64,000 nucleotides of DNA from an uncultured Planctomycetales bacterium. GTDB taxonomy: Bacteria > Omnitrophota > Gorgyraeia > Zapsychrales > JANLHA01. Both the position numbers and the translations under genes were made by a program. The DNA lies in the NCBI GenBank assembly GCA_964474085.1, contig CAYYRJ010000008.1, forward strand, positions 23,677-87,676, written 5' to 3'. Below are positions 1,742 to 61,097 of this stretch, in pieces. The notes beneath the pieces were generated by a model, which was not told the origin of the DNA, did no database searches, and worked only from the letters and a program-made list of their open reading frames with translations. How positions within the stretch are numbered: position 1 is the stretch's first letter; each line of letters starts with the position of its first letter.

Positions 1742-2080
1742 ATGAAAAAGATAGAAGCATATATTCAACCGTTTATGCTCAGTAAAGTTGTGAATGCCTT
1801 GCGCGCCATCCATATTCACGGGATGTCTGTTGTAGACGCTAAAGGGTTCGGCAAAGAAAAGGATGAGAGTTATCCGCACCATAATGTAGATCATTTGACG
1901 GACTTCACACCTAAGACAAGGATTGAAATTGTGTGTCTTGATGAGGATTATAAAAAAATAATAGAAGCTATTCGCCAATCTGCTCACACAGGACGTAAAG
2001 GAGATGGTAAAATATTCATCAGCAATTTGGAGCACGCTGTCAGCATTCGTAATGGCAAAGAAAATGAAGAGGCAATTTAA
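1742..2080 (+). CDS. P-II (GlnB-like fold) family protein, associated with the metal-efflux operon
   Basis: 112 aa, N-terminus MKKIEAYIQPFML typical of P-II-like proteins. RBS aaggagg upstream; immediately downstream of the RND pump. Confidence 0.55.
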   Translation: MKKIEAYIQPFMLSKVVNALRAIHIHGMSVVDAKGFGKEKDESYPHHNVDHLTDFTPKTRIEIVCLDEDYKKIIEAIRQSAHTGRKGDGKIFISNLEHAVSIRNGKENEEAI

Positions 2081-2186
2081 TTAACAAGGCTACTATGAGC
2101 GAAAATGGTAGTGCACTTTATAATTTATTTAATCAGAAAAAGAAAAAGTCAGGGAAAAGTAACGCTTCAGTAGAGGGGGTATAAAT

Positions 2187-2603
2187 ATGAGAAAGAATGC
2201 TATTGTTTGTGCAGTATTAAGTATTATAGTTTTCTCAGGTTGCCAAACTTTGGGCATGAAATTCAATGATGAGCATACAAAAGCACACAATGTTGAAATT
2301 CAAGTTGATCAAAAATTGAATAAATACATGAAAGGTGTAAGTTTGAGCCATCGGCTTTATGACGGAAAGGCTTTTCTGGCTTTAAGCGGTTCTTTGCAAA
2401 GACCTATTGGATCTTTCACGTCTTTATTAAAAGTTAATGCGAAGTTTTATGACGAGAATGGCCAAGTTGTGGCAGAGTCAAATGACAATGTACGTTTTAG
2501 TCGCATGGGATCGCGAACACATCGCCGCTATAAAGGTTCATTATTCTTAAAGATCGAGGATAATGTGACAATAAAGAAATGTGTTTTAGAGGTGACTGCG
2601 TAA
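2187..2603 (+). CDS. Hypothetical lipoprotein
   Basis: Signal peptide with lipobox-like FSGC; RBS gagggggt; no recognisable domain. Confidence 0.45.
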   Translation: MRKNAIVCAVLSIIVFSGCQTLGMKFNDEHTKAHNVEIQVDQKLNKYMKGVSLSHRLYDGKAFLALSGSLQRPIGSFTSLLKVNAKFYDENGQVVAESNDNVRFSRMGSRTHRRYKGSLFLKIEDNVTIKKCVLEVTA

Positions 2604-2636
2604 ACTAAACAATTAACCAATAAGAGGAGAATGTAA

Positions 2637-2930
2637 ATGAAAAAGAAAGCAATCGTTTTTAGTATGGCAATTTTATTATTCAGTTCTATCAGTTTTGTAT
2701 TTGCTCAAGAGCAAGTAAGCAATGAGAATGTTGTCAAGATTTGTCCAATCTGCGGCCCTGAAGCAAACATGATGGGCAAAGACGATATCGCCTTTGAATA
2801 TGAAGGAAAAACGTATCACTTTTGCAGTCAAGATTGTTTAAAAGCGTTCAAAAAAGATCCTGAAAAATTTGCTAAGAAAATGGATGAGGGAATGAATGTC
2901 GAATCGCACGAAGGGCATGATCATAAATAA
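2637..2930 (+). CDS. YHS/TRASH-domain metal-binding protein with signal peptide
   Basis: Motif CPICGPE...YHFCSQDCLKAFKKDPEKF is typical of YHS domains found next to P-type ATPases. His-rich C-terminus HEGHDHK. Confidence 0.6.
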   Translation: MKKKAIVFSMAILLFSSISFVFAQEQVSNENVVKICPICGPEANMMGKDDIAFEYEGKTYHFCSQDCLKAFKKDPEKFAKKMDEGMNVESHEGHDHK

Positions 2931-2942
2931 TCGAGAGTCAAA

Positions 2943-4844
2943 ATGACTGAACATCAAAATCAATGCGCTACTTGTAATCATAATGATACAAGGCAGGAGT
3001 TTGATGTAACAAAGAATGTATTTCTGATTGCCGTATCTTTGATTCTATTTGTTTGCGGTTTGATTTTTAATCGTCAGTTGCATGAAACGCCCGCTTTTGA
3101 ATATGGACTCTTTCTTTTTGTCTATTTCCTAAGCGGGCGTTTTGTTTTATTAAATGCTTTCCGTAATATTATTCGTGGCCGCATTTTTGATGAAAATTTT
3201 TTGATGAGTATTGCGACCATTGGTGCAATTGCAATTCATCAGCTGCCTGAAGCAGTCGCGGTGATGATTTTCTATCAGGTGGGGGAGTTCTTTCAAGAAA
3301 TCGCACTTAACCGATCTAGACGTTCCATCAAGGCTCTTCTTGAATTAAGGCCGGATTACGCGAATTTAAAACTCAATGGTGAATTTAAAAGAATTTCGCC
3401 TCAAGAGGTTAAAATTGACCAATTGATTGTGATTAAGCCTGGGGAAAAAATCCCTCTGGATGGAGTAGTCATAGAAGGTAGTTCGCAATTAGATACTTCA
3501 GCTTTGACTGGAGAATCTATACCTAGAACAATCAAGTCCGGCGAGGTAGTTTTGGCTGGGATGATTAATAAAACCGGCCTTCTTACCGTCAAAGTTACAA
3601 AGTCATTTGGAGAATCATCTATCTCAAGAATTTTGGAATTGGTTGAGAATGCCAGTAGCAAAAAAGCTGAGACTGAGAAATTTATTACTAAAATTTCGGC
3701 TTATTACACACCCGTTGTCGTTCTGATCGCTTTATTAATTGCTGTCGTTCCACCGCTGATTCTTGCTGGTCAAAGCTTCGACACATGGATTTACCGTGCG
3801 CTGGTTATTTTGGTTATTTCTTGTCCATGCGCGTTAGTGATAAGTATTCCATTGGGTTATTTTGGCGGTATCGGGGGAGCGGCTCGCAGGGGTGTCTTGA
3901 TTAAAGGTTCTAATTTCCTAGACGTTCTTACAGAGATCAAGACAATTGTATTTGATAAGACGGGAACGCTTACTAAAGGTGTTTTTAAAGTAACAGAGGT
4001 TATCGTAAGGAATGGATTTAATCAAAATGAGATCCTTGAATTCACTGCAATAGCTGAATCACAATCCAATCATCCAATTTCTAAATCGATTGTGGAGTCT
4101 TACGGGAAAAGAATTGATTTGTCAGAAGTTTCGGGATTTCAGGAAATATCCGGGCATGGGATTAAAGCTATAGTTCGCGGGAAAGAAGTCATTGCCGGAA
4201 ATGATCGTTTGCTTCACGCCGAGAATATTGAACATGATGTCTGCGAAGTTGTCGGAACTGTTGTTCATGTTGCTATTGATGGACGTTACTGTGGATATAT
4301 CGTCATTTCGGATGAGCTTAAGGATGATGCAGTTCAAGCAATCGAGTCACTAAGAAATGCTGGGATCGAAAAGATTGTTATGTTGACCGGAGATAACAAA
4401 TTCTCAGCGGGAGCAATCGCTAAACGGTTAAACATAGATTCATTTTATGCGGAATTGCTTCCAGAAGATAAGGTCAAGCACTTAGAGGAGATTCAAAAAT
4501 CTCAAGGACATAAAGTTGCTTTTGTTGGAGATGGCATAAACGATGCCCCAGTTTTAGCTCGAGCGGATGTCGGCATAGCGATGGGTGCTTTGGGTTCAGA
4601 TGTTGCGGTCGAAACGGCAGATATTGTCATTATGGCCGATTCTGTTTCTAAAATTGTGACGGCAATTGATATGGCTAAAAGAACCCGTCAAATAATTTGG
4701 CAGAATATATGGCTTGCTTTGGTTGTTAAATCAGTCTTTATTATTTTAGGAAGTTTTGGAGTGGCAACGATGTGGGAAGCTGTGTTCGCGGATATGGGCG
4801 TTGCCCTGCTGTCTATTCTGAATGCAACCCGGCTGTTAAAATAA
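2943..4844 (+). CDS. Heavy-metal translocating P1B-type ATPase (Cd/Zn/Pb-like)
   Basis: CPC motif (SCPCALV), TGES, DKTGTLT, GDGINDAP and MVGDGINDAP-type motifs, and an N-terminal Cys/His metal-binding region. Confidence 0.9.
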   Translation: MTEHQNQCATCNHNDTRQEFDVTKNVFLIAVSLILFVCGLIFNRQLHETPAFEYGLFLFVYFLSGRFVLLNAFRNIIRGRIFDENFLMSIATIGAIAIHQLPEAVAVMIFYQVGEFFQEIALNRSRRSIKALLELRPDYANLKLNGEFKRISPQEVKIDQLIVIKPGEKIPLDGVVIEGSSQLDTSALTGESIPRTIKSGEVVLAGMINKTGLLTVKVTKSFGESSISRILELVENASSKKAETEKFITKISAYYTPVVVLIALLIAVVPPLILAGQSFDTWIYRALVILVISCPCALVISIPLGYFGGIGGAARRGVLIKGSNFLDVLTEIKTIVFDKTGTLTKGVFKVTEVIVRNGFNQNEILEFTAIAESQSNHPISKSIVESYGKRIDLSEVSGFQEISGHGIKAIVRGKEVIAGNDRLLHAENIEHDVCEVVGTVVHVAIDGRYCGYIVISDELKDDAVQAIESLRNAGIEKIVMLTGDNKFSAGAIAKRLNIDSFYAELLPEDKVKHLEEIQKSQGHKVAFVGDGINDAPVLARADVGIAMGALGSDVAVETADIVIMADSVSKIVTAIDMAKRTRQIIWQNIWLALVVKSVFIILGSFGVATMWEAVFADMGVALLSILNATRLLK

Positions 4845-33717: not shown

Positions 33718-34809
33718 ATGCGACAACTGCGGATTTCTATTGCCACAATTTGTTTGGCCCTGATTTGTTTAGGGGTCATTATGGTTTATAGCACCAGCGG
33801 CATCAATGCGATGCAGCGCTATGGCGACAGTTTTTATTTTCTCAAGCGTCATCTTGTTTTTTTAGTTATGGGATTTTTGTGTGCCTGCGGGGTTATGGCG
33901 GCAGATTATCGGGATTTGCGAAAAATCATCAAGCCGCTTTTGTTATTTACACTGTTTCTTTTGGTTCTGGTCCTTATTCCGCATATCGGTTCGGTCAGTA
34001 ACGGAGCACGCCGCTGGTTTAAGTTGGGATTTTTTAATTTTCAGCCTACCGAGTTTGCAAAATTAGTCATGCTCGTGTATGCCGCTGATTTTTTAGCTCG
34101 TAAGCCTAATGATGTCAAAAGTTTTCGCCGCGGGTTTTTGCCGCTAATGATTGTTTTAGGGACGTTGTGTGCGCTTATTTTAAAACAGCCGGATTTAGGC
34201 AGCGCCTTTTTAATCGGGTGCGTTGTGGTGATTATGTTTTTTATTGCCGGCGGACAAATCTGGTATTTTGGCATACTCGCTCTGATGGCTATCCCCGGGT
34301 TTTATTTTTTGGTGGTTCGTGTGGCGTACCGCTGGGCGCGGATTGCAACGTTTCTGGACCCCTGGCAGGATCCGCAAGGAGCTGGTTTTCAGTTGACTCA
34401 GTCCCAAATCGCGTTTGGCTCCGGTGGGCTTTGGGGTGTGGGATTAGGGCACAGTATCCAAAAACTTTTTTATTTGCCCGCGGCGCACACGGATTTTGTT
34501 CTTTCGATTATCGGCGAGGAAATGGGATTTTTGGGCGCGTTTACGGTGATCCTTTTATTTGGTACTTTTATTTGGCAGGGGGCACGCATTGCCAAAAGGG
34601 TCAAAGATCCGTTCGGCTATTATTTGGCCTGCGGGATTGTGACAATTATTGGCCTTCAGGCGGTTATCAATGTTGGAGTGACGATCGGTGCTTTACCGAC
34701 GAAGGGTTTGCCGCTGCCCTTTATTAGTTACGGGGGGTCGGCCCTTGTTGTAAATATGATGCTTATTGGGTTGTTGTTAAATATTTCGCGGATTGAAGAT
34801 TGCGCATGA
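33718..34809 (+). CDS. ftsW: Peptidoglycan glycosyltransferase FtsW (SEDS family)
   Basis: About 10 TM helices; PTKGLPLPFISYGGS motif. Confidence 0.9.
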   Translation: MRQLRISIATICLALICLGVIMVYSTSGINAMQRYGDSFYFLKRHLVFLVMGFLCACGVMAADYRDLRKIIKPLLLFTLFLLVLVLIPHIGSVSNGARRWFKLGFFNFQPTEFAKLVMLVYAADFLARKPNDVKSFRRGFLPLMIVLGTLCALILKQPDLGSAFLIGCVVVIMFFIAGGQIWYFGILALMAIPGFYFLVVRVAYRWARIATFLDPWQDPQGAGFQLTQSQIAFGSGGLWGVGLGHSIQKLFYLPAAHTDFVLSIIGEEMGFLGAFTVILLFGTFIWQGARIAKRVKDPFGYYLACGIVTIIGLQAVINVGVTIGALPTKGLPLPFISYGGSALVVNMMLIGLLLNISRIEDCA

Positions 34810-34819
34810 AACCTTTAAT

Positions 34820-34967
34820 CCCAAATTTTGCATTACAATTAATTGCGCGACGATTCGTCGCGCACAAAAAGAAAAATGCAAAATTTGCCTTCGGTTGTCC
34901 TGCAGGGACAAGGTTAACCCCGCACGTCTCGACTTCGTCGAGACATGAGGCCCTTCGGGCGGATTTT
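34820..34967 (+). repeat. Copy A of an approximately 150-bp multi-hairpin intergenic repeat
   Basis: About 90% identical to the reverse complement of 55727-55876. Contains three hairpins (gcgcgacg/cgtcgcgc, ttgtcc/ggacaa, gtctcgac/gtcgagac). Confidence 0.8.
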
Positions 34968-34985
34968 ACTTGGCCAAGCAGGAGC

Positions 34986-36083
34986 TTGGCCAATGAAAAA
35001 TCCGGGTTAAAAATTGTCTTAGCCACCGGCGGCAGCGGGGGACATATTTTCCCGGCGCTAGTTACCGCACAGCAATTAAAAAGCCGCGGGCACACGATTA
35101 TTTTTGCCGGAAGCTTCAAGCATTCGGGCGCCAAAATTCAATCTGCAGGTTTTAAATATTTCGAAATTCACGCAAAAGGATTTTCGATGCGTTCGCCTCT
35201 GGCTGTTTTTCAATTTATTTTGGCGGCAGCGCAATCTTTTTTTGAATCTCAGCATATTTTAAGGCAAATCAAGCCGCAGATCGTCGTCGGATTTGGCGGG
35301 TATGGCGCTTTTACAATTGTTTTGGCCGCTTTTTTGCAACGAATCCCGACAATGATACAGGAACAAAATGTCGTTCCTGGAAAAGCCAATCGTTTGCTTT
35401 CGTTTGTTGCCCGAAGAATTGCCGTCGGGTTTAAAGAGGCGCAAAGCCGTTTTCCGGCATCCAAAGTTTTGGTGACCGGCTGCCCGGCAAGGGCGCTTCC
35501 TGCGGTGATTGACCGCAATGGCGCTTTTGAAAATTTTGGTTTTGCCCAAGGCTTAAAGATCATTTTTGTTTTAGGCGGCAGTCAGGGAAGCCGGCGGATC
35601 AACGCCGAGTTTATAAAAGCCGCCGAAAGATTGAAAGCCAAAATGAATTTTGGCGTCATTCATCTTTGCGGTGCAAATGATGTCGAGCTTTGCAAAGCCG
35701 CTTACCAAAGGCTCGGAATTGCCCACTGGGTAGCCAGTTTTACCGACGAGATATTTAAGGCGTATGCCATTGCGGATTTAGTTGTCAGTCGATCCGGGGC
35801 AATGACGGTAACGGAGCTCGCGGCGTTTTGTTTGCCGGCGATTTTAATTCCCTACCCTTACGCCGGTGGTCATCAGAGGGAGAATGCCTTGGTTTTGACA
35901 AAGACAAAGGCCAGTTGTTTGATCGACGAAAAAGATTTAACGACCGACGTTTTAGAGAAGGCTTTAAGTCAGATGTTAACGAATCCCATCCCTAAAGAGC
36001 AAATTAAAATCGCGTATGAAGGCATTTATCGTCCCGACGCTGCTTTTGTATTAGCCGATGAAATTGAGAGGTTAAAGGCGTGA
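34986..36083 (+). CDS. murG: UDP-GlcNAc:lipid I N-acetylglucosaminyltransferase
   Basis: IVLATGGSGGHIFPA G-loop. The ORF is listed from 34800, but its first 60 codons lie within the intergenic repeat. The start was placed at TTG 34986, just after AGGAG; the exact start is uncertain. Confidence 0.8.
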   Translation: MANEKSGLKIVLATGGSGGHIFPALVTAQQLKSRGHTIIFAGSFKHSGAKIQSAGFKYFEIHAKGFSMRSPLAVFQFILAAAQSFFESQHILRQIKPQIVVGFGGYGAFTIVLAAFLQRIPTMIQEQNVVPGKANRLLSFVARRIAVGFKEAQSRFPASKVLVTGCPARALPAVIDRNGAFENFGFAQGLKIIFVLGGSQGSRRINAEFIKAAERLKAKMNFGVIHLCGANDVELCKAAYQRLGIAHWVASFTDEIFKAYAIADLVVSRSGAMTVTELAAFCLPAILIPYPYAGGHQRENALVLTKTKASCLIDEKDLTTDVLEKALSQMLTNPIPKEQIKIAYEGIYRPDAAFVLADEIERLKA

Positions 36084-41533: not shown

Positions 41534-43000
41534 TTAGTTTTCAGGAATATAAGTACAACGAAACCCTAAGTTCGCGTAAGCGCTGTTCTCGGGAAATATC
41601 CATGCCGAGTATATTCCGCCACGGCGTTCATGTGCTCCTGTTTTAAAACGGCGGGCATGGCTGTCGGGATCTGGCCCCGGCTGGTAGGATCTTGGTTCAT
41701 CAAATTTCCCGCCCCGAAATATTCCCATGTATGTGAAAGAATCGAAACGAATTAAACCAAAACCAAGCTGGTCATAGTAAGGTGTCGCATAAGTATTAGC
41801 TGGAAGAAAAGCCAGTTTGTTTGTTGATGCTTGCGGATCTGGTGGAAAAAGAAAAGGCGTTATGCGGGGATATTCTTCAATAGGGCCATCATTGTAGTCA
41901 TCAAGCGGCAGCTTATTGAACTTTGTATCGTTGAGTTGATAAATTTCTGTATAAAGTCCAATACCCGAGGAATCTAGTGTTCCGCCCGCATCTACCCACG
42001 AGTTCATATTTCCAGCCATATCCCAAATCTTTTTATTAGTAGTTAAAGGATTCTCAAGTAGAAAGATTCTTTTTTGCCAGAAATCATCATGAAGTTTATC
42101 TGTGCAATTAGGGTTGTGTGTGCCAAAGCACGGATCTGCGTCTGTAGGGTCAGCCGCCAAAAAATTTTGACCAGTTTCACAGCCCGAAGGAGCAGGTGAA
42201 GCGCTACAATCACCATCGCTGTGCCCTGTTGGAATGTGGCCCGCGCCCACGGCGTCTTCAGACCAGTTTTGCAGATTATTTTCAATACTATAAGCGACTG
42301 TCATCCATTCGGCGTTGGTGATCAGATGAAATTCTCCCGGAATTCCAGCTTTATTAAGGTTCCTACAGGCTTGTTGAGCTTGTGCTAAAGTAAGATTTCC
42401 CCACGGCATATCTTCCGGACGCGATTCGGGCTTATAATTGTCGATATCTCCCAAGTTGGGATTATTGCGTGGACCATCACTATCTCGGTGGGGCGCCCCT
42501 GATGTTTTATAAACCGGTTTCATATGATATTTAGAAACGCAAAAGTCTTTGATGGTTCCCGCTGCTGGGTTTCTGGGGATAGGGACAAATCCTTGCGGAC
42601 AGCAAGGGACATCGGGAATACTGCCCATATAGACCCAGTTTGCCCCGTTACAATAACGCATGACTCCTAAATCGTTATCATACTCTTGTTGTCCTGTGAT
42701 AACGCAGCCATTGACACTTATGCCGCAGATTAAATTAAACTTTCTAGCTCCATCACAAAATTCCATGCGGTTGGTCGTTGTATTATATGTTTGTTGGCCT
42801 TCTACCGAACACGTTCCAATCGATTTCTGGTGCGCAGCCGGAACGCCAGCTGGTTTCCATTCTCCGTCTTTGAACCGTTCCATCTGTTGGGTGTCCGCAT
42901 TATATCTTTGTTCTGAATCAGCATTTGCTTCTGGTAATACGGCAGGTAAAGATAAAAAAATACCGGCGGTCAAAGTAAAAATCAAAAATTTTATTTTCAT
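41534..43000 (-). CDS. Secreted FGE-sulfatase (SUMF1/DUF323) domain protein with three N-terminal Cys-containing repeats
   Basis: Signal peptide; repeats ...M-x-F/Y-C-D/N-G-x-x-W...; C-terminal GNMNSW ... RGG ... GFRC signatures. Confidence 0.65.
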   Translation of the reverse strand: MKIKFLIFTLTAGIFLSLPAVLPEANADSEQRYNADTQQMERFKDGEWKPAGVPAAHQKSIGTCSVEGQQTYNTTTNRMEFCDGARKFNLICGISVNGCVITGQQEYDNDLGVMRYCNGANWVYMGSIPDVPCCPQGFVPIPRNPAAGTIKDFCVSKYHMKPVYKTSGAPHRDSDGPRNNPNLGDIDNYKPESRPEDMPWGNLTLAQAQQACRNLNKAGIPGEFHLITNAEWMTVAYSIENNLQNWSEDAVGAGHIPTGHSDGDCSASPAPSGCETGQNFLAADPTDADPCFGTHNPNCTDKLHDDFWQKRIFLLENPLTTNKKIWDMAGNMNSWVDAGGTLDSSGIGLYTEIYQLNDTKFNKLPLDDYNDGPIEEYPRITPFLFPPDPQASTNKLAFLPANTYATPYYDQLGFGLIRFDSFTYMGIFRGGKFDEPRSYQPGPDPDSHARRFKTGAHERRGGIYSAWIFPENSAYANLGFRCTYIPEN

Positions 43001-43373: not shown

Positions 43374-44663
43374 TTAAGGTGTTAAAACCGGTTCTTTGAT
43401 TGTCCGGGAATTTTTTAAGGATTCGATTTGCTGTTGTTGCTCATAAATTTGTTGGGATTGCGCTTTTAATTGTTGGCCAAGGGTTTGATTTTGATTTTTA
43501 AGTTCTTTGACCGCTTCGATCAAAGGGGCAATTAAAGACGGATAATCAACAGCTTTTGCGCCCTCTTGACCATAAACAGATTCGGGAAATATTTTTTCGA
43601 CCTCTTGCGCGATAACGCCGATATGTTTTCGATGATCTGTTTGCTGCGCATTGTCTTTCCATTCAAACGAAACCCCATTAAGACGTGAAATTTTGTCGAG
43701 CGCATTTTGGACCGGAGCAATATCTTTTTTAAGTGCTGCATCCGAGGTCAGGATTAACGCGGTGGCCCGGATATTGCCGTTGACATCGAGTCTTTGCTCA
43801 GGCGCTGGTGTATTAATCCCGACCCAGCCATTGGCCGTGATAGTCAAAACATCCCCATTGCGAGCGGCAACGTTGTTTGAGCTGATCATCACATATGGCA
43901 AACTATTGGCGAACAAGGCCAAAGGAGGATAAGTGGCGTTTCCGGCCAGTTCAAGAATGGCTGAAGGTGAGGTATCGCGTATGCCCAAATAACCGTTACC
44001 GTTTAAATGAAATTGTTCAACCGGATTTGCTGCGGCCGAGCCGTCACGCAAGAAAATTCCGAATGAAGATTGCAAGGAACCTGCAGTTAAATTTTCAAAA
44101 AGAGCGCGAAGGATCACATGATCCCCGGCGGTTCCAGCAAAAGCGATTCTTCCTCCGGGGCCTTGTCCGGCATTAACTAGCGTAGACATATTTTGTAGGC
44201 GTATGTAAGTCGGTGAAACAGCAGGATTGCTGGCGCCGCTTAAAATGTGCAGATAGCTTGTCGGATCATTCGTTCCGATACCGACATAGGGTTGGCGCAC
44301 GTCGACATTTCCGTATAGCGCAAAATCTCGTAAGTAGTATTGATCGATGTCAGCAATGCTGTCGAACTTTAGTAGATTTGCGCCGACAATTGTTCTTTCC
44401 CAGAGGCCGTTACCTACGGGCACCCAATTTGATGTCTGGCATTGATTAATAACATTAGTTGTATTTGGAATGTACAATGTCCCTTCTTGTTCATCTGTGC
44501 AGGTTGCTCCAAGCGTATCTCGCGGCACAAGGCGCAGCCGATCATAAGCGCCATAAGGGGCTGGATAATAGGAAGTTAAGGTGATGGTGTTGGTTGTTGC
44601 GGCAGCAAAAGCGAACGTCGAAAGATTTAACCCTAAAAAAGCAAGGATAAACAAGCGCTTCAT
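43374..44663 (-). CDS. Secreted protein with a phage tail-fibre / endosialidase-type C-terminal intramolecular chaperone (peptidase S74-like) domain
   Basis: Signal peptide. C-terminal DIAPVQNALDKISRLNGVSFEWKD...HIGVIAQEVEKIFPESV followed by a coiled-coil Q-rich tail. Confidence 0.6.
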   Translation of the reverse strand: MKRLFILAFLGLNLSTFAFAAATTNTITLTSYYPAPYGAYDRLRLVPRDTLGATCTDEQEGTLYIPNTTNVINQCQTSNWVPVGNGLWERTIVGANLLKFDSIADIDQYYLRDFALYGNVDVRQPYVGIGTNDPTSYLHILSGASNPAVSPTYIRLQNMSTLVNAGQGPGGRIAFAGTAGDHVILRALFENLTAGSLQSSFGIFLRDGSAAANPVEQFHLNGNGYLGIRDTSPSAILELAGNATYPPLALFANSLPYVMISSNNVAARNGDVLTITANGWVGINTPAPEQRLDVNGNIRATALILTSDAALKKDIAPVQNALDKISRLNGVSFEWKDNAQQTDHRKHIGVIAQEVEKIFPESVYGQEGAKAVDYPSLIAPLIEAVKELKNQNQTLGQQLKAQSQQIYEQQQQIESLKNSRTIKEPVLTP

Positions 44664-53494: not shown

Positions 53495-55618
53495 TTGATC
53501 AACGTGAATTCTGGCCAACAGTCCTATTTTATTTCCCGTTTTGTTATTCTATTCTCACTTTTGATTGCTGTGTGTTTGGGGGCGGCGTTATGGAATATTA
53601 ACCCCTGGCCCACCGACGCTGAAACGTATTATTTGCCGGCGGCGTTGCGCATCCCGCATATTCAATATCTTTCCGAAATCCATCTGACCGAAGGCATCGA
53701 AAAAGTTCGCTGGCTGCATGGCAAGGAATTTTATGTGGTCGGAATTTCACTTCTTCAGTTTATGCTCAATGATTTTGAAAGCCTGCGTCCCTTTATGCTT
53801 TTGGGCCTTGCTGCGATTGCGATCTCTTCGATTTTAATTTTTTATATTGCTCGGCGGCTGTGGGGAGAATGGATCGCTCTGGGGTGTTATTTTGCGTTTG
53901 CATTCAGTTTTTGGCCGTACATTTATATTCTTTTTGCCAAACATCAGACCTTGGGGTTAATGTTCTTTTTGTTTTCGGCTGTATTTTTGCTCAATTCAAC
54001 AAGGTTTCGTTTTGGGCCGGCATGGTTTTTATTGTCGGGCTTAAGTTTGGGCGCGAGTTTCTTTTCATCGACGGTCAGCAGTTTGTATATATTTTATTAT
54101 TTTGCTGTTTTTTTCTTTGTTTTCTTTTCGGAAAAATATAAAAGTTTTGGAAATCTTGTCAAAAGTCTGTTCGTGCGTGGACTTTTGGTCATCGTTGGAA
54201 CTGTCGGTGTTTTTATTTATGTGAATTTGCCGGATGTTTTTCTCAACATAAAAAATTGTGCCCAGTATGTGCATATCAGCGGGGCGTTCAATCATTTTTA
54301 TTATAATCAAGTAGCGTTACAGCAATGGTTTACCCATATTAACGTCGGGGAGATTAGAGCTGGCTGGATATGGGTTTTAAAATATCTTTTTTTAATCTTG
54401 CCGGTTTTGCTGCCCGTATATTTTGCGGGTGTCTTTTATTTGTGTGGGCGTATTTTTAAAGAAAAATCTTGGGGTTCGCGATTAAAAATTTTGGGCGTGG
54501 TTCTTTTGAGCATGTCTTCCCCGGCGATGGCGGATGCGGCCAAAGTGGCACAGTACGGGTCGAATTATTTTCCAACCATCGTCGGCATTATTCTTTTGAT
54601 CGCGTATGCGTTAAACGACTTGGCTAAAAAAATTGATTTTAAAGATCCGCTTGTCGTGACAAGGGTGCGCATTTTTTCTCTCGGGTTTTTGGTGCTGTAT
54701 GCGTCGATGAATCTGTATACTTTTGTTAACGATGTTTATGTCCCTCGCATGGCCACGACGTTTTTGTCGGAAAAAATCAAGTCGTTAGGCGTTGATCGTC
54801 TGGCGACTTATCGCGTGCATTTTCATCGGAATCAATTTGTGTTTTGTTTAAATGCAAAATTGCGCGAAAATCTCCATTGGTATGGCATCAAGTCTTTGGA
54901 TCAGCTGGAAGAAGGCTATGTGATTGTTCCGCCATCGACGGGAGATTCGATTTATGTCGCTTCATCAACGTCCTATAATAATTTTGACAAAGACCCTGTT
55001 TTAGTCGGTTTTCTTCGCAATGATTTATTAAAGAATTGTGCGGTAGCTTCTTATCGGACTTTGGCTAGCAGCCGGATTTGGCAGCAGGAAGAAGAAATTT
55101 TAAGTTACCGCGACTTGATTTTAAACCATCGGTTTCCGCAGGATGCGCTGGGCCGCGTTTGGCTCTTGGATGCCGCCAAGGTCAAGGCGCAAAAGGAAAA
55201 CATTAAATTTTCTTTAGAAGATCGTGTGCTTTTGTCGGGCAAAATTAATAATATCGGGACTGCCGAAAAGTTTTATATGTTCGAAGGCCAGCGTCTGGCG
55301 ATGCGTCAAACGACTGTCGTGCGTTTTCTTTTGACGCAGGTCTGGAAAAAAGGTAACCCGGATGATTCACTGGTTGCGTCAGTTTACCGGACAGACCCAA
55401 ACGAACCGATTTGGCTGCCTGTCGGCAAAAATTTTACTTCGCAACCTTTGACGGCGGAGGAAATTAAACCCAAGAGCGATGAGGGCGTTGCTGTTTTTTA
55501 TTTTAAAGAGCCGCTTGTCCTTAATCGCGGTGTTTACAATTTTGTGATTTACCGTACGGGAAAGCCCGACGACAAGAATTATTATCAGATCGACAACAGG
55601 CATTTTGCCGTCAAGTAA
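53495..55618 (+). CDS. GT-C superfamily membrane glycosyltransferase-like protein (ArnT/PMT-like N-terminal polytopic domain plus C-terminal soluble domain)
   Basis: About 12 N-terminal TM helices; TTG start is uncertain; hairpin terminator after the stop. Confidence 0.55.
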   Translation: MINVNSGQQSYFISRFVILFSLLIAVCLGAALWNINPWPTDAETYYLPAALRIPHIQYLSEIHLTEGIEKVRWLHGKEFYVVGISLLQFMLNDFESLRPFMLLGLAAIAISSILIFYIARRLWGEWIALGCYFAFAFSFWPYIYILFAKHQTLGLMFFLFSAVFLLNSTRFRFGPAWFLLSGLSLGASFFSSTVSSLYIFYYFAVFFFVFFSEKYKSFGNLVKSLFVRGLLVIVGTVGVFIYVNLPDVFLNIKNCAQYVHISGAFNHFYYNQVALQQWFTHINVGEIRAGWIWVLKYLFLILPVLLPVYFAGVFYLCGRIFKEKSWGSRLKILGVVLLSMSSPAMADAAKVAQYGSNYFPTIVGIILLIAYALNDLAKKIDFKDPLVVTRVRIFSLGFLVLYASMNLYTFVNDVYVPRMATTFLSEKIKSLGVDRLATYRVHFHRNQFVFCLNAKLRENLHWYGIKSLDQLEEGYVIVPPSTGDSIYVASSTSYNNFDKDPVLVGFLRNDLLKNCAVASYRTLASSRIWQQEEEILSYRDLILNHRFPQDALGRVWLLDAAKVKAQKENIKFSLEDRVLLSGKINNIGTAEKFYMFEGQRLAMRQTTVVRFLLTQVWKKGNPDDSLVASVYRTDPNEPIWLPVGKNFTSQPLTAEEIKPKSDEGVAVFYFKEPLVLNRGVYNFVIYRTGKPDDKNYYQIDNRHFAVK

Positions 55619-55726
55619 AGATTGCGAAGAAAACGCAATTTGCTTCTTTACATTTTTTAAACATTTATATATTATACCGGTTATTAAACCCGGATTTTGC
55701 ATTGGCCTCGCTTCTACGAGGCAAAG

Positions 55727-55876
55727 CAAAATCCGCCCAAAGGGCCGCATGTCTTAACAAAGTTAAGACGTGCGGGGTTAATCCTTGTCCCTGTGGGACA
55801 ACCGAAGGCAAATTTTGCATTTCCCTTTTTGTGCGCGACATATCGTCGCGCAATGTGGTGTAATGCAAAATTTGGG
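55727..55876 (-). repeat. Copy B of the approximately 150-bp multi-hairpin intergenic repeat (inverted relative to copy A)
   Basis: About 90% identical to the reverse complement of copy A. Stems are preserved by paired substitutions (gtcttaac/gttaagac in B versus gtctcgac/gtcgagac in A). Confidence 0.8.
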
Positions 55877-55910
55877 ATAAAATTTAATTTTGCTTCTGAT
55901 CGCGGGCCTA

Positions 55911-57011
55911 ATGCATTTTCAACAGATAGAACTTAAACAAACTCCCCTTTATGAGCAGCATGTTTTGCTCGGGGCTAAAATGGTTGGCTTTGGCGGTTGG
56001 GACATGCCCTTGCAGTATGAAGGGATTTTGGCTGAATATGCAGCAACCCGACGGGAAGTTTCGGTTTTTGACACTTCGCACATGGGCGAATTTATCGTCA
56101 CGGGCTCTTTGCAAACCTGTGGCTTGGATCGGTTGGTTACGCAGCGTTTAGGTGATTTAGCGCCCGGCGCTTGTCGGTATGGCGTTTTATTAAAGGAAGA
56201 TGGCGGCGTTTTAGATGATTTGATTGTTTATCGTTTAGCACAAGAAAAATGGATGATTGTCGTTAACAGCGCGACGATAGAAAAAGACGCATCGCAGTTT
56301 GCCAGCCATCTAGCCTCCGAGGCGCAATTTTCAAATATTTCTTCCTCGACGGGGAAATTGGATATCCAAGGCCCCAAATCGCGGGAGCTTCTTTCGCAAT
56401 TTATTAAAGGGATTGAAAAACTTTCCTATTATACCTTTGGCGAGTTTGACGTTTTGGGGACACAGGCAATCGTCAGTCGCAGCGGTTATACGGGTGAATT
56501 GGGTTATGAAATTTATTTCCCTTGGGAGCAGACTCCTGCTTTGTGGAACAAAATTTTGGCGTTGGGCGCTAAACCGGCGGGTTTGGGAAGTCGTGATGTT
56601 TTGCGCCTGGAGATGGGATATAGCCTTTATGGCCATGAATTAGGCGAGGATATTTCTCCGCTTGAGGCTGGCTTGGAACGATTTATCGACTGGGAAAAAG
56701 ATTTTATCGGTAAGTCGGTTTTGGTCAGTCAAAAACAAGCCGGGTTAAAGCGCAGTCTGATCGCTTTTGTTTCAGCCACCCGGCGTTCGCCGCGCAGCGA
56801 TTTTGAAATTTATTCAACCGACAGTAAAAAAATCGGTCATGTGACCAGCGGAACCTTTTCGCCGACGCTTGAAAAGGGAATCGGTCTTGGTTTTGTCGAA
56901 CCCGGATACGCAAAAATCGGGGAAAAGCTTTCCGTCGGTCAAGGACAAAATCGTTTTGAAGTCAGCGTTGTGGCCAAACCATTTTATAAACACGGAACTT
57001 TCCGCAAGTAA
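55911..57011 (+). CDS. gcvT: Glycine cleavage system aminomethyltransferase T
   Basis: LKQTPLYEQH...FGGWDMPLQY. The start is likely ATG 55911. Confidence 0.9.
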   Translation: MHFQQIELKQTPLYEQHVLLGAKMVGFGGWDMPLQYEGILAEYAATRREVSVFDTSHMGEFIVTGSLQTCGLDRLVTQRLGDLAPGACRYGVLLKEDGGVLDDLIVYRLAQEKWMIVVNSATIEKDASQFASHLASEAQFSNISSSTGKLDIQGPKSRELLSQFIKGIEKLSYYTFGEFDVLGTQAIVSRSGYTGELGYEIYFPWEQTPALWNKILALGAKPAGLGSRDVLRLEMGYSLYGHELGEDISPLEAGLERFIDWEKDFIGKSVLVSQKQAGLKRSLIAFVSATRRSPRSDFEIYSTDSKKIGHVTSGTFSPTLEKGIGLGFVEPGYAKIGEKLSVGQGQNRFEVSVVAKPFYKHGTFRK

Positions 57012-61002: not shown

Positions 61003-61097
61003 ACAGCAAAAAGTTTAAAAATTTTAAAGAGTTTGCGTTGACAGTCTTTATGCGCAATCTATAATAAAAAAGAATTTTTAAAAATCAGGAGCGGTAG

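Follow-up and report, generated by a model that had tools for sequence, protein, structure and literature searches.

The question raised by this locus is what kind of element is represented by a structured repeat that occurs twice, in inverted orientation, within the window (the whole analyzed stretch of 64,000 nt). The sequence-only reading had proposed either a REP/BIME- or MITE-like structured element, or a repeated small RNA or riboregulator. Our results indicate, with a probability of about 0.88, that the feature is a MITE, that is, a non-coding, non-autonomous DNA transposon of 187–192 nt. The family, which occurs in Omnitrophota-like bacteria, is previously undescribed and is an ordinary kind of element; a full-text literature search found no report of a MITE for Omnitrophota.

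The repeat had been estimated at approx. 150 bp; however, the alignment of 27 family members sets the core at 187–188 nt in the window. Pairwise alignment and a repeat finder placed the similarity across arms 34814–35011 and 55684–55882, and nhmmer detected exactly two copies. These lie inverted to each other at about the positions originally given, with an identity of approx. 86% (mean column identity across 252 aligned columns, flanks counted in) rather than approx. 90%, and their arms are 87% and 83% complementary. The copies and the genes beside them are as follows.

34820–35006, + strand: MITE copy A, 187-nt core, sense to murG (not 34820–34967)
55689–55876, − strand: MITE copy B, 188-nt core, antisense to the flanking genes (not 55727–55876)
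33718–34809, + strand: ftsW (Pfam FTSW_RODA_SPOVE), upstream of murG
55917–57011, + strand: gcvT (Pfam GCV_T and GCV_T_C)

The hairpin beside each copy (34970–34993 and 55702–55725), previously taken to be additional and unrelated, turned out to belong to the element and to be homologous in the two copies. This hairpin has a compensatory change of its own between the copies (ggccAAg/cTTggcc versus gccTCg/cGAggc) and is enclosed by an additional helix (ggatttt.../...aaaatcc). The two sites had also been described as unrelated intergenic regions. This holds for copy B, located between a gene encoding a 707-aa PMT_2-like protein and gcvT, the core ending 41 nt from the gcvT start codon with 40 bases in between; the same site is occupied in the related MAG CAZWOH (ortholog L013). 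Copy A, in contrast, lies 14 nt inside the reading frame of murG.

Some further features of the window were recorded. A terminator-like hairpin (AGATTGCGAAGAAAACGCAATTT; 55619–55641) is present directly 3′ of the 707-aa gene, upstream of copy B and outside the element. On the minus strand there is a 428-aa ORF (43374–44660) with a domain of the Peptidase_S74 (endosialidase chaperone) family, as is typical of phage tail fibres, adjoined by a 487-aa ORF (41534–42997) that matches no family; the region around these two ORFs is otherwise plus-strand, and they may be what is left of a prophage.

In order to define the family, an exact 19-mer from the centre of the element was looked for in 185,579 species, each represented by a single genome. 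Among the 38 loci matched, 34 were true loci, all of them from four related MAGs, one being Candidatus Omnitrophota SZ_szas25bin.37 and the other three bearing the label "uncultured Planctomycetales"; the remaining four loci were chance matches of 19–21 nt. BLAST and nhmmer resolved 39 copies in the window (two) and the four MAGs: 27 of full length (core 187–192 nt), three with an internal deletion in the first arm, five cut by contig ends, three consisting of the first 85–96 nt only, and one 80-nt internal-deletion derivative. The latter (L020, 6783–6860) has retained both ends. An even shorter derivative of 45 nt (L019, 4680–4724) contains little beyond the terminal repeats (CCCTGATTTTGCGTTACA...AATGTAAAATCCACC) and has TTAAT on either side. 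The same locus encodes two tandem paralogues (1803–3080 and 3407–4675; approx. 70% DNA identity), both of them PilZ-plus-FeeM (N-acyl amino acid synthase) proteins.

Copies from the other MAGs are 83–93% identical to copy A, whereas the MurG proteins of these MAGs are just 69–71% identical, and subfamily variants are common to different genomes. Such uniformity fits a family whose copies are kept alike by ongoing transposition or by movement from host to host. A scan of viral contigs with the central 19-mer gave no matches, a scan with the right end gave one chance match within a coding region, and a BLAST search of plasmids with the element gave no match. When the two most frequent reading frames of the element were translated and used as protein queries, they yielded no matches and one short match, respectively; these frames are thus rare, being almost absent from public protein sets. 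The left end (CCCAAATTTTGCATTACA) was discarded as a probe for metagenomes, since all of the contigs among the matches listed (at least 120) carry an unrelated repeat sharing this 18-mer. That repeat (...gaccccctgtccccattatcccccaaatc CCCAAATTTTGCATTACA aatagtagttttttgctcgaaacacactg...), which contains the exact 18-mer of the left end, is highly abundant and occurs in at least 120 JGI contigs (L039–L158), e.g. Ga0209149, Ga0209338, Ga0209339, Ga0209428 and Ga0209637.

The ends of the element and any target-site duplications, which it had been suggested to check, could both be defined. In the 27-copy alignment similarity stops exactly outside CCC...GGG, and the termini are imperfect inverted repeats of 15 nt (CCCAAATTTTGCATT / AATGCAAAATCCGGG), with 13 of 15 positions matching between CCCAAATTTTGCATT and the reverse complement CCCGGATTTTGCATT. 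Variation in the alignment is lowest in these columns (minor-allele fraction 0.010 for the left repeat and 0.023 for the other, compared with 0.131 for unpaired columns). The motif AATGCAAAAT occurs four times in the element, twice in each orientation, so that each terminal repeat pairs with its own internal inverted copy. The core is flanked by a 5-bp direct repeat with the consensus TTNAW. The terminal features in the window are listed below.

34820–34834, + strand: left terminal inverted repeat of copy A (CCCAAATTTTGCATT), also the 5′ arm of helix P1 (P1 partner at 34875–34887)
34992–35006, + strand: right terminal inverted repeat of copy A (AATGAAAAATCCGGG; family consensus AATGCAAAATCCGGG)
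34815–34819, + strand: left duplication of copy A (TTAAT), in murG codons 4–5
35007–35011, + strand: right duplication of copy A (TTAAA)
55877–55881, − strand: duplication at the left of copy B (TTTAT, in the orientation of the element)
55684–55688, − strand: duplication at the right of copy B (TTTAA, in the orientation of the element)
61064–61068, − strand: empty target site with a single TTTAT, filled in the CAZWOH ortholog (L025, 3541–3728)

In 14 of 26 independent copies the left and right 5-mers agree perfectly (4.0 expected); none of 20000 shuffles, in which the right-hand 5-mers were permuted among copies, reached 14. The variable third (middle) base matches between left and right in 24 of 26 copies, and the 5-mers co-vary from side to side (CTAAA/CTAAA, TTCAT/TTCAT, TTCAA/TTCAA); TTTAT is among the commonest duplications of the family. 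The proposal that copies might be absent from orthologous sites in relatives was borne out by three clear occupied/empty pairs: (i) locus L028 carries the element and L002 is empty, with a single TTCGA, (ii) the TTTAT site of the window listed above is filled in CAZWOH, and (iii) the ftsW-murG junction is empty in CAZNNZ, which has a single TTGAA at the site of copy A. The target 5-mers are compositionally constrained, and one occupied/empty pair alone cannot separate a duplication from a 5-nt tail of the element; the case for duplication comes from the correlation of left and right 5-mers across copies.

The position of copy A deserves a detailed description. The ORF starting at 34800 had been dismissed as a translation artefact of the repeat; its frame is in fact that of murG, with the native ATG at 34806 and a stop-free, in-frame insertion.

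34806–36083, + strand: murG frame of 425 codons, insertion included; its native ATG (34806) and the stop codon of ftsW overlap (ATGA)

Two other ORFs, 34763(−) and 55379–55750(−), are probably artefacts, and neither matches a family. Copy A is inserted in codon 5 of murG, where the junction reads ATGA (34806–34809), AAA CCT, [TTAAT], the 187-nt core, [TTAAA], AAT TGT C... Deletion of the core and one duplication gives back ATG AAA CCT TTA AAA ATT GTC, i.e. MKPLKIVLATGG, the orthologous N-terminus; the MurG proteins of the closest relatives (69–71% identical) begin with MKPLKILLATGG or MKSGLKILIATGG. The core plus the 5-bp duplication amounts to 192 nt, or 64 stop-free codons, the core itself being read as 62 codons and parts of two more (peptide IPNFALQLIARRF...ANEKSG). 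The 64 additional residues, without which the protein would have 361 aa, precede the first position of the Glyco_transf_28 profile. The sole alternative in-frame start is a TTG at 34986, with an AGGAG 1 nt upstream, too near to serve well. The same insertion, with the frame open, is present in a JGI contig that shares 99.3% identity with the window and is annotated as encoding a 425-aa MurG; the strain also occurs in JGI 3300038404. From the intact frame we infer that MurG would be made with a 64-residue N-terminal insertion.

In JAYRHV (L159) and CAZNNZ (L160) ftsW and murG overlap by 4 nt without a spacer. The start of murG in JAYRHV (L159, 2501–2520; JAYRHV010000123) reads ATGAAA-TCCGGG-TTAAA AATT, with the additional bases at the exact site of copy A. 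TCCGGG corresponds to the last 6 bases of the element and is followed by the duplication, which suggests that this site is probably a deletion footprint that has added one residue to MurG (MKSGLKIL).

Most copies are located 0–70 nt from the ends of flanking ORFs, and two of the 39 are clearly intragenic, namely copy A and the copy in locus L018. The latter (710–896) is inserted antisense and in frame in a gene for a GspD-like secretin (649–2442), within the part that encodes the signal peptide, and the ATG of its terminal repeat is in frame with the remaining gene. Another copy (L010, 3723–3919) lies exactly at the ATGA stop/start overlap of a Peptidase_M48 gene and a DUF192 gene, with ATGAA (gene strand) as the duplicated target. 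Both the upstream stop and the downstream start have been kept at this site, and a 5-codon mini-ORF from the terminal-repeat ATG ends on a TGA that overlaps the downstream ATG.

With respect to flanking long ORFs, 24 copies are antisense (as is copy B) and six are sense (as is copy A; binomial p = 0.0014); a manual count gave 23:7 (p = 0.005). Asymmetry of the target was considered as the cause of this bias and rejected, as all 13 copies with a symmetric target (TTNAA in 12 and its variant CTAAA in one, read from tables) are antisense. Scans for consensus promoters and terminators found none conserved in the element and none distinguishing the two orientations. The bias may reflect either selection within transcription units or coupling to the direction of replication.

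Both terminal repeats have an outward-facing ATG. At the left end, the only one scored, it opens a 5-codon ORF ending in the duplication in 18 of 27 copies. On the sense strand, an AGGAG in the loop of the last hairpin (H5) lies 8 nt before the ATG of the right repeat, which in copy A opens MKNPG*, with its stop within the duplication (34980–35010). Taken together with the duplication, the most frequent length is divisible by three and leaves frames open. The open frame varies between copies, both orientations are used, and there is no conserved peptide. On the gene strand the target reads WTNAA, a pattern that takes in stop codons as well as the ATGA(A) overlap of stop and start; the duplication can therefore restore the upstream stop together with the downstream start, as seen at L010. 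The target, the outward ATGs, the multiple-of-three length and the orientation bias together raise the idea of a "translation-compatible" MITE adapted to packed operons, whose fold would act on polycistronic mRNA as a processing/stability module or a coupling device; we regard this as a tentative and rather doubtful proposal.

The predicted fold of the element is very stable. The energies of the two window copies are −89 and −91.6 kcal/mol (z of approx. −9.7 and −9.9), none of 200 shuffles folded as well, and the reverse complement folds equally well (z −10.1). Three hairpins had been described for each copy, whereas RNAalifold applied to 27 copies predicted 66 pairs in nine helices with five terminal hairpins: P1 encloses H1, the short hairpins H2, H3 and H4 follow, P5 encloses H5, and a closing helix (AACCC/GGGTT) is predicted. 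In copy A these are located as follows.

34844–34864, + strand: H1 (tgcgcgacg att cgtcgcgca), inside P1
34896–34910, + strand: H2 (tgtcct gca gggaca)
34926–34944, + strand: H3 (gtctcgac ttc gtcgagac), the stem quoted in the sequence-only reading
34950–34960, + strand: H4 (gccc ttc gggc), invariant in 27/27 copies
34961–35003, + strand: right arm, P5 (ggattttac / gaaaaatcc) around H5 (ttggccaag caggag cttggccaa)

The compensatory change from which selection on structure had been argued is present (gtctCGac/gtCGagac in copy A and gtctTAac/gtTAagac in copy B): in H3, CG/CG is replaced by TA/TA in copy B and its ortholog L013, and the loop triplet is hypervariable. Across the 27 copies, 97.6% of cells are paired on the consensus structure. 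Both sides have changed in 12 pairs, compared with 3.6 in shuffles (0 of 500 as many) and at most five in slid controls. Covariation occurs in five of the nine helices (H2, H3, P5, H5 and the closing helix), helices 8 and 9 contain seven of the 12 covarying pairs, and P1, H1 and H4 show none. In one copy (L010a) the stem of H2 has been wholly replaced and is nevertheless paired (gcgg ttta ccgc). Variability is 3.5 times lower in paired columns (0.037) than in unpaired columns (0.131; p = 1e-4).

The pairing constraint on the element is real. The double changes are partly subfamily-defining and shared between genomes, and correspond to roughly 10–12 independent events; departures to G.U on the sense strand, and to A.C, which would be G.U on the other strand, number 12 and 9 distinct events (p = 0.66), i.e. 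there is no strand asymmetry. Given this balance, the folding of both strands and the small number of events, RNA-level selection of a given strand is not demonstrated. Possible sources of the constraint are hairpins in single-stranded DNA, RNA of either strand, and mutation that corrects palindromes, as compensation within close palindromes can arise mutationally too. The compensatory changes might accordingly be products of template switching ("quasi-palindrome correction") in the close inverted repeats of a neutral MITE. The symmetry of the covariation between strands, the concentration of double changes in short-loop hairpins (H3, H5) and in P5, and the few events, several of which define cross-genome subfamilies, all agree with such a process. 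The 3.5 times lower variability of stems compared with loops, however, points to purifying constraint and not to correction alone; the process does not sit well, either, with the invariance of H4 and P1 or with L010a, which has swapped the whole H2 stem for a different paired one. We consider this explanation of the changes unlikely.

Two further readings concern the nature of the element itself. If the copies were repeated small RNA or riboregulator genes, or cis-regulatory RNA modules, selection would act on the fold as their product, with dispersal as a secondary matter. The stability of the fold (z approx. −9.7), the genuine covariation in five of nine helices, loops evolving 3.5 times faster than stems, the 24:6 orientation bias, and the placement of most copies 0–70 nt from gene ends, so that they are probably co-transcribed, all speak for such genes or modules. 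We nevertheless judge this reading very improbable. It does not account for target-site duplications, empty orthologous sites and deletion derivatives that retain the ends, or for the copies inside murG and a secretin gene; the element lacks a conserved promoter and a conserved terminator, its two strands fold equally well, departures to G.U and to A.C are in balance by event, and mRNA in the commoner orientation receives the strand with fewer G.U pairs. At the gathering threshold the only Rfam matches in the window were two tRNAs, and under permissive settings the best match over the element was mir-96 (E-value 0.1; 20 bits versus a cut-off of 65). The other reading is that a Y1/HUH transposase mobilises the element as single-stranded DNA, in the manner of REP/BIME-RAYT or of palindrome-associated elements derived from IS200/IS605; the end hairpins would then be recognition structures, and the bias would reflect insertion into the lagging-strand template. 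Each end does form its own hairpin, P5 covaries and changes in the terminal repeats are compensated in the internal partner, the orientation relative to genes is biased, and the target (TTNAW) is short and specific. REP/BIME with RAYT likewise are dispersed extragenic palindromes with an orientation bias. However, Y1 transposition (IS200/IS605) makes no target duplication, whereas the co-varying 5-mers on the two sides of the element indicate one. REPs measure 20–40 nt, come with no target duplication and are associated with a Y1 transposase, and none of these three properties holds for the element, a 187-nt unit with inverted termini and a 5-bp duplication; among the neighbouring and minus-strand ORFs scanned with Pfam there was no transposase, and hence no RAYT or TnpA gene. 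Both this mode of mobilisation and the roles it would give to the hairpins and the bias therefore appear extremely improbable.

The preferred reading remains that of a MITE, as the multiple copies, terminal inverted repeats, 5-bp duplications, empty orthologous sites and deletion derivatives bear out the MITE-like alternative of the sequence-only reading. ORFs across the element match no Pfam family and no transposase gene lies within it. The element inserts at TTNAW sites, those 5 bp being duplicated, and would be mobilised by a DDE-type transposase acting in trans through 5-bp staggered cuts. IS1380-like elements, which have CC ends and 4–5-bp duplications, may be considered as a candidate IS family. 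An autonomous partner, i.e. a transposase bounded by the same ends, was not found in approx. 260 kb of sequence, where the only extra sites resembling the terminal repeats were the 45-nt derivative and one chance site, and no segment besides the element was present in multiple copies. As single-stranded DNA or RNA, the element is predicted to fold into the long arms P1 and P5 and hairpins H1–H5. Copy B represents an ordinary intergenic insertion upstream of gcvT. With copy A in place, murG stays open from the ftsW-coupled ATG and encodes a 425-aa protein in which 64 residues precede the first strand of the fold, and the folded RNA may affect expression of the operon. The hairpin-forming ends and the 24:6 bias are atypical as requirements of a DDE MITE, and the MITE reading alone does not explain them.

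These observations have consequences for annotation and assembly. Gene callers read through the element (JGI calls a 425-aa MurG), several ORFs of the related MAGs "start" within copies, making start-codon calls near copies unreliable, and the many copies at contig ends suggest that the family probably breaks the assemblies of these MAGs. Copy A is a clean non-Rickettsia case of a palindromic mobile element in frame within a normally essential gene; the insertion is intact in two near-identical populations, with a probable deletion footprint in another genus-level relative. With its covariation, lack of strand asymmetry and orientation bias, the family also provides a compact data set on why the hairpins of MITEs are conserved. 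Notable extras of the family are the in-frame copy within murG, the biased orientation and the covarying hairpins of the ends; these do not reveal a new kind of system.

Comparison with known systems places the element among several groups of small bacterial repeats. Rickettsia palindromic elements (RPEs) are mainly inserted in frame within ORFs and encode a conserved peptide. Copy A and the L018 copy resemble them in being palindromic, approx. 150–190 nt long and in frame, with the gene staying open (PMC10969869). RPEs are frequently intragenic, in contrast to the element (2/39 clearly so), which also differs in having clear terminal repeats, target duplications and no conserved peptide, frames and orientations being variable. 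The bcr1 repeats of the Bacillus cereus group are likewise multi-copy and approx. 150 nt long, with features of mobile elements and a TTTAT motif at the ends, and their mechanism has been described as possibly resembling site-specific recombination (PMC6542083). The variable middle base of the duplication argues instead for staggered-cut transposition of our element; bcr1 belongs to a different phylum, and the likeness is one of described features.

Further parallels are provided by MITEs, whose defining features are small size, terminal inverted repeats, direct repeats from target duplication and dispersed copies (PMC10969869). Correia/NEMIS (of Neisseria), ERIC and RUP are, like the element, small, AT-rich and non-coding, with terminal inverted repeats, direct repeats generated by target duplication, and dispersed copies mostly at gene boundaries, the transcripts of which have predicted very stable stem-loops (PMC10969869). 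The comparison with prokaryotic MITEs is made by described features, no sequence relationship being known, and the host of the element is an uncultured Omnitrophota-like lineage, unlike the hosts of Correia, ERIC and RUP. In Correia/NEMIS elements the target duplication is TA, the terminal repeats measure 26 nt and an IHF site is present. The element, with its 5-bp duplication (TTNAW) and 15-nt terminal repeats, cannot be counted among them. Finally, each end of the element is a self-contained hairpin, formed by a terminal repeat and its internal copy rather than by simple pairing of one terminus with the other.
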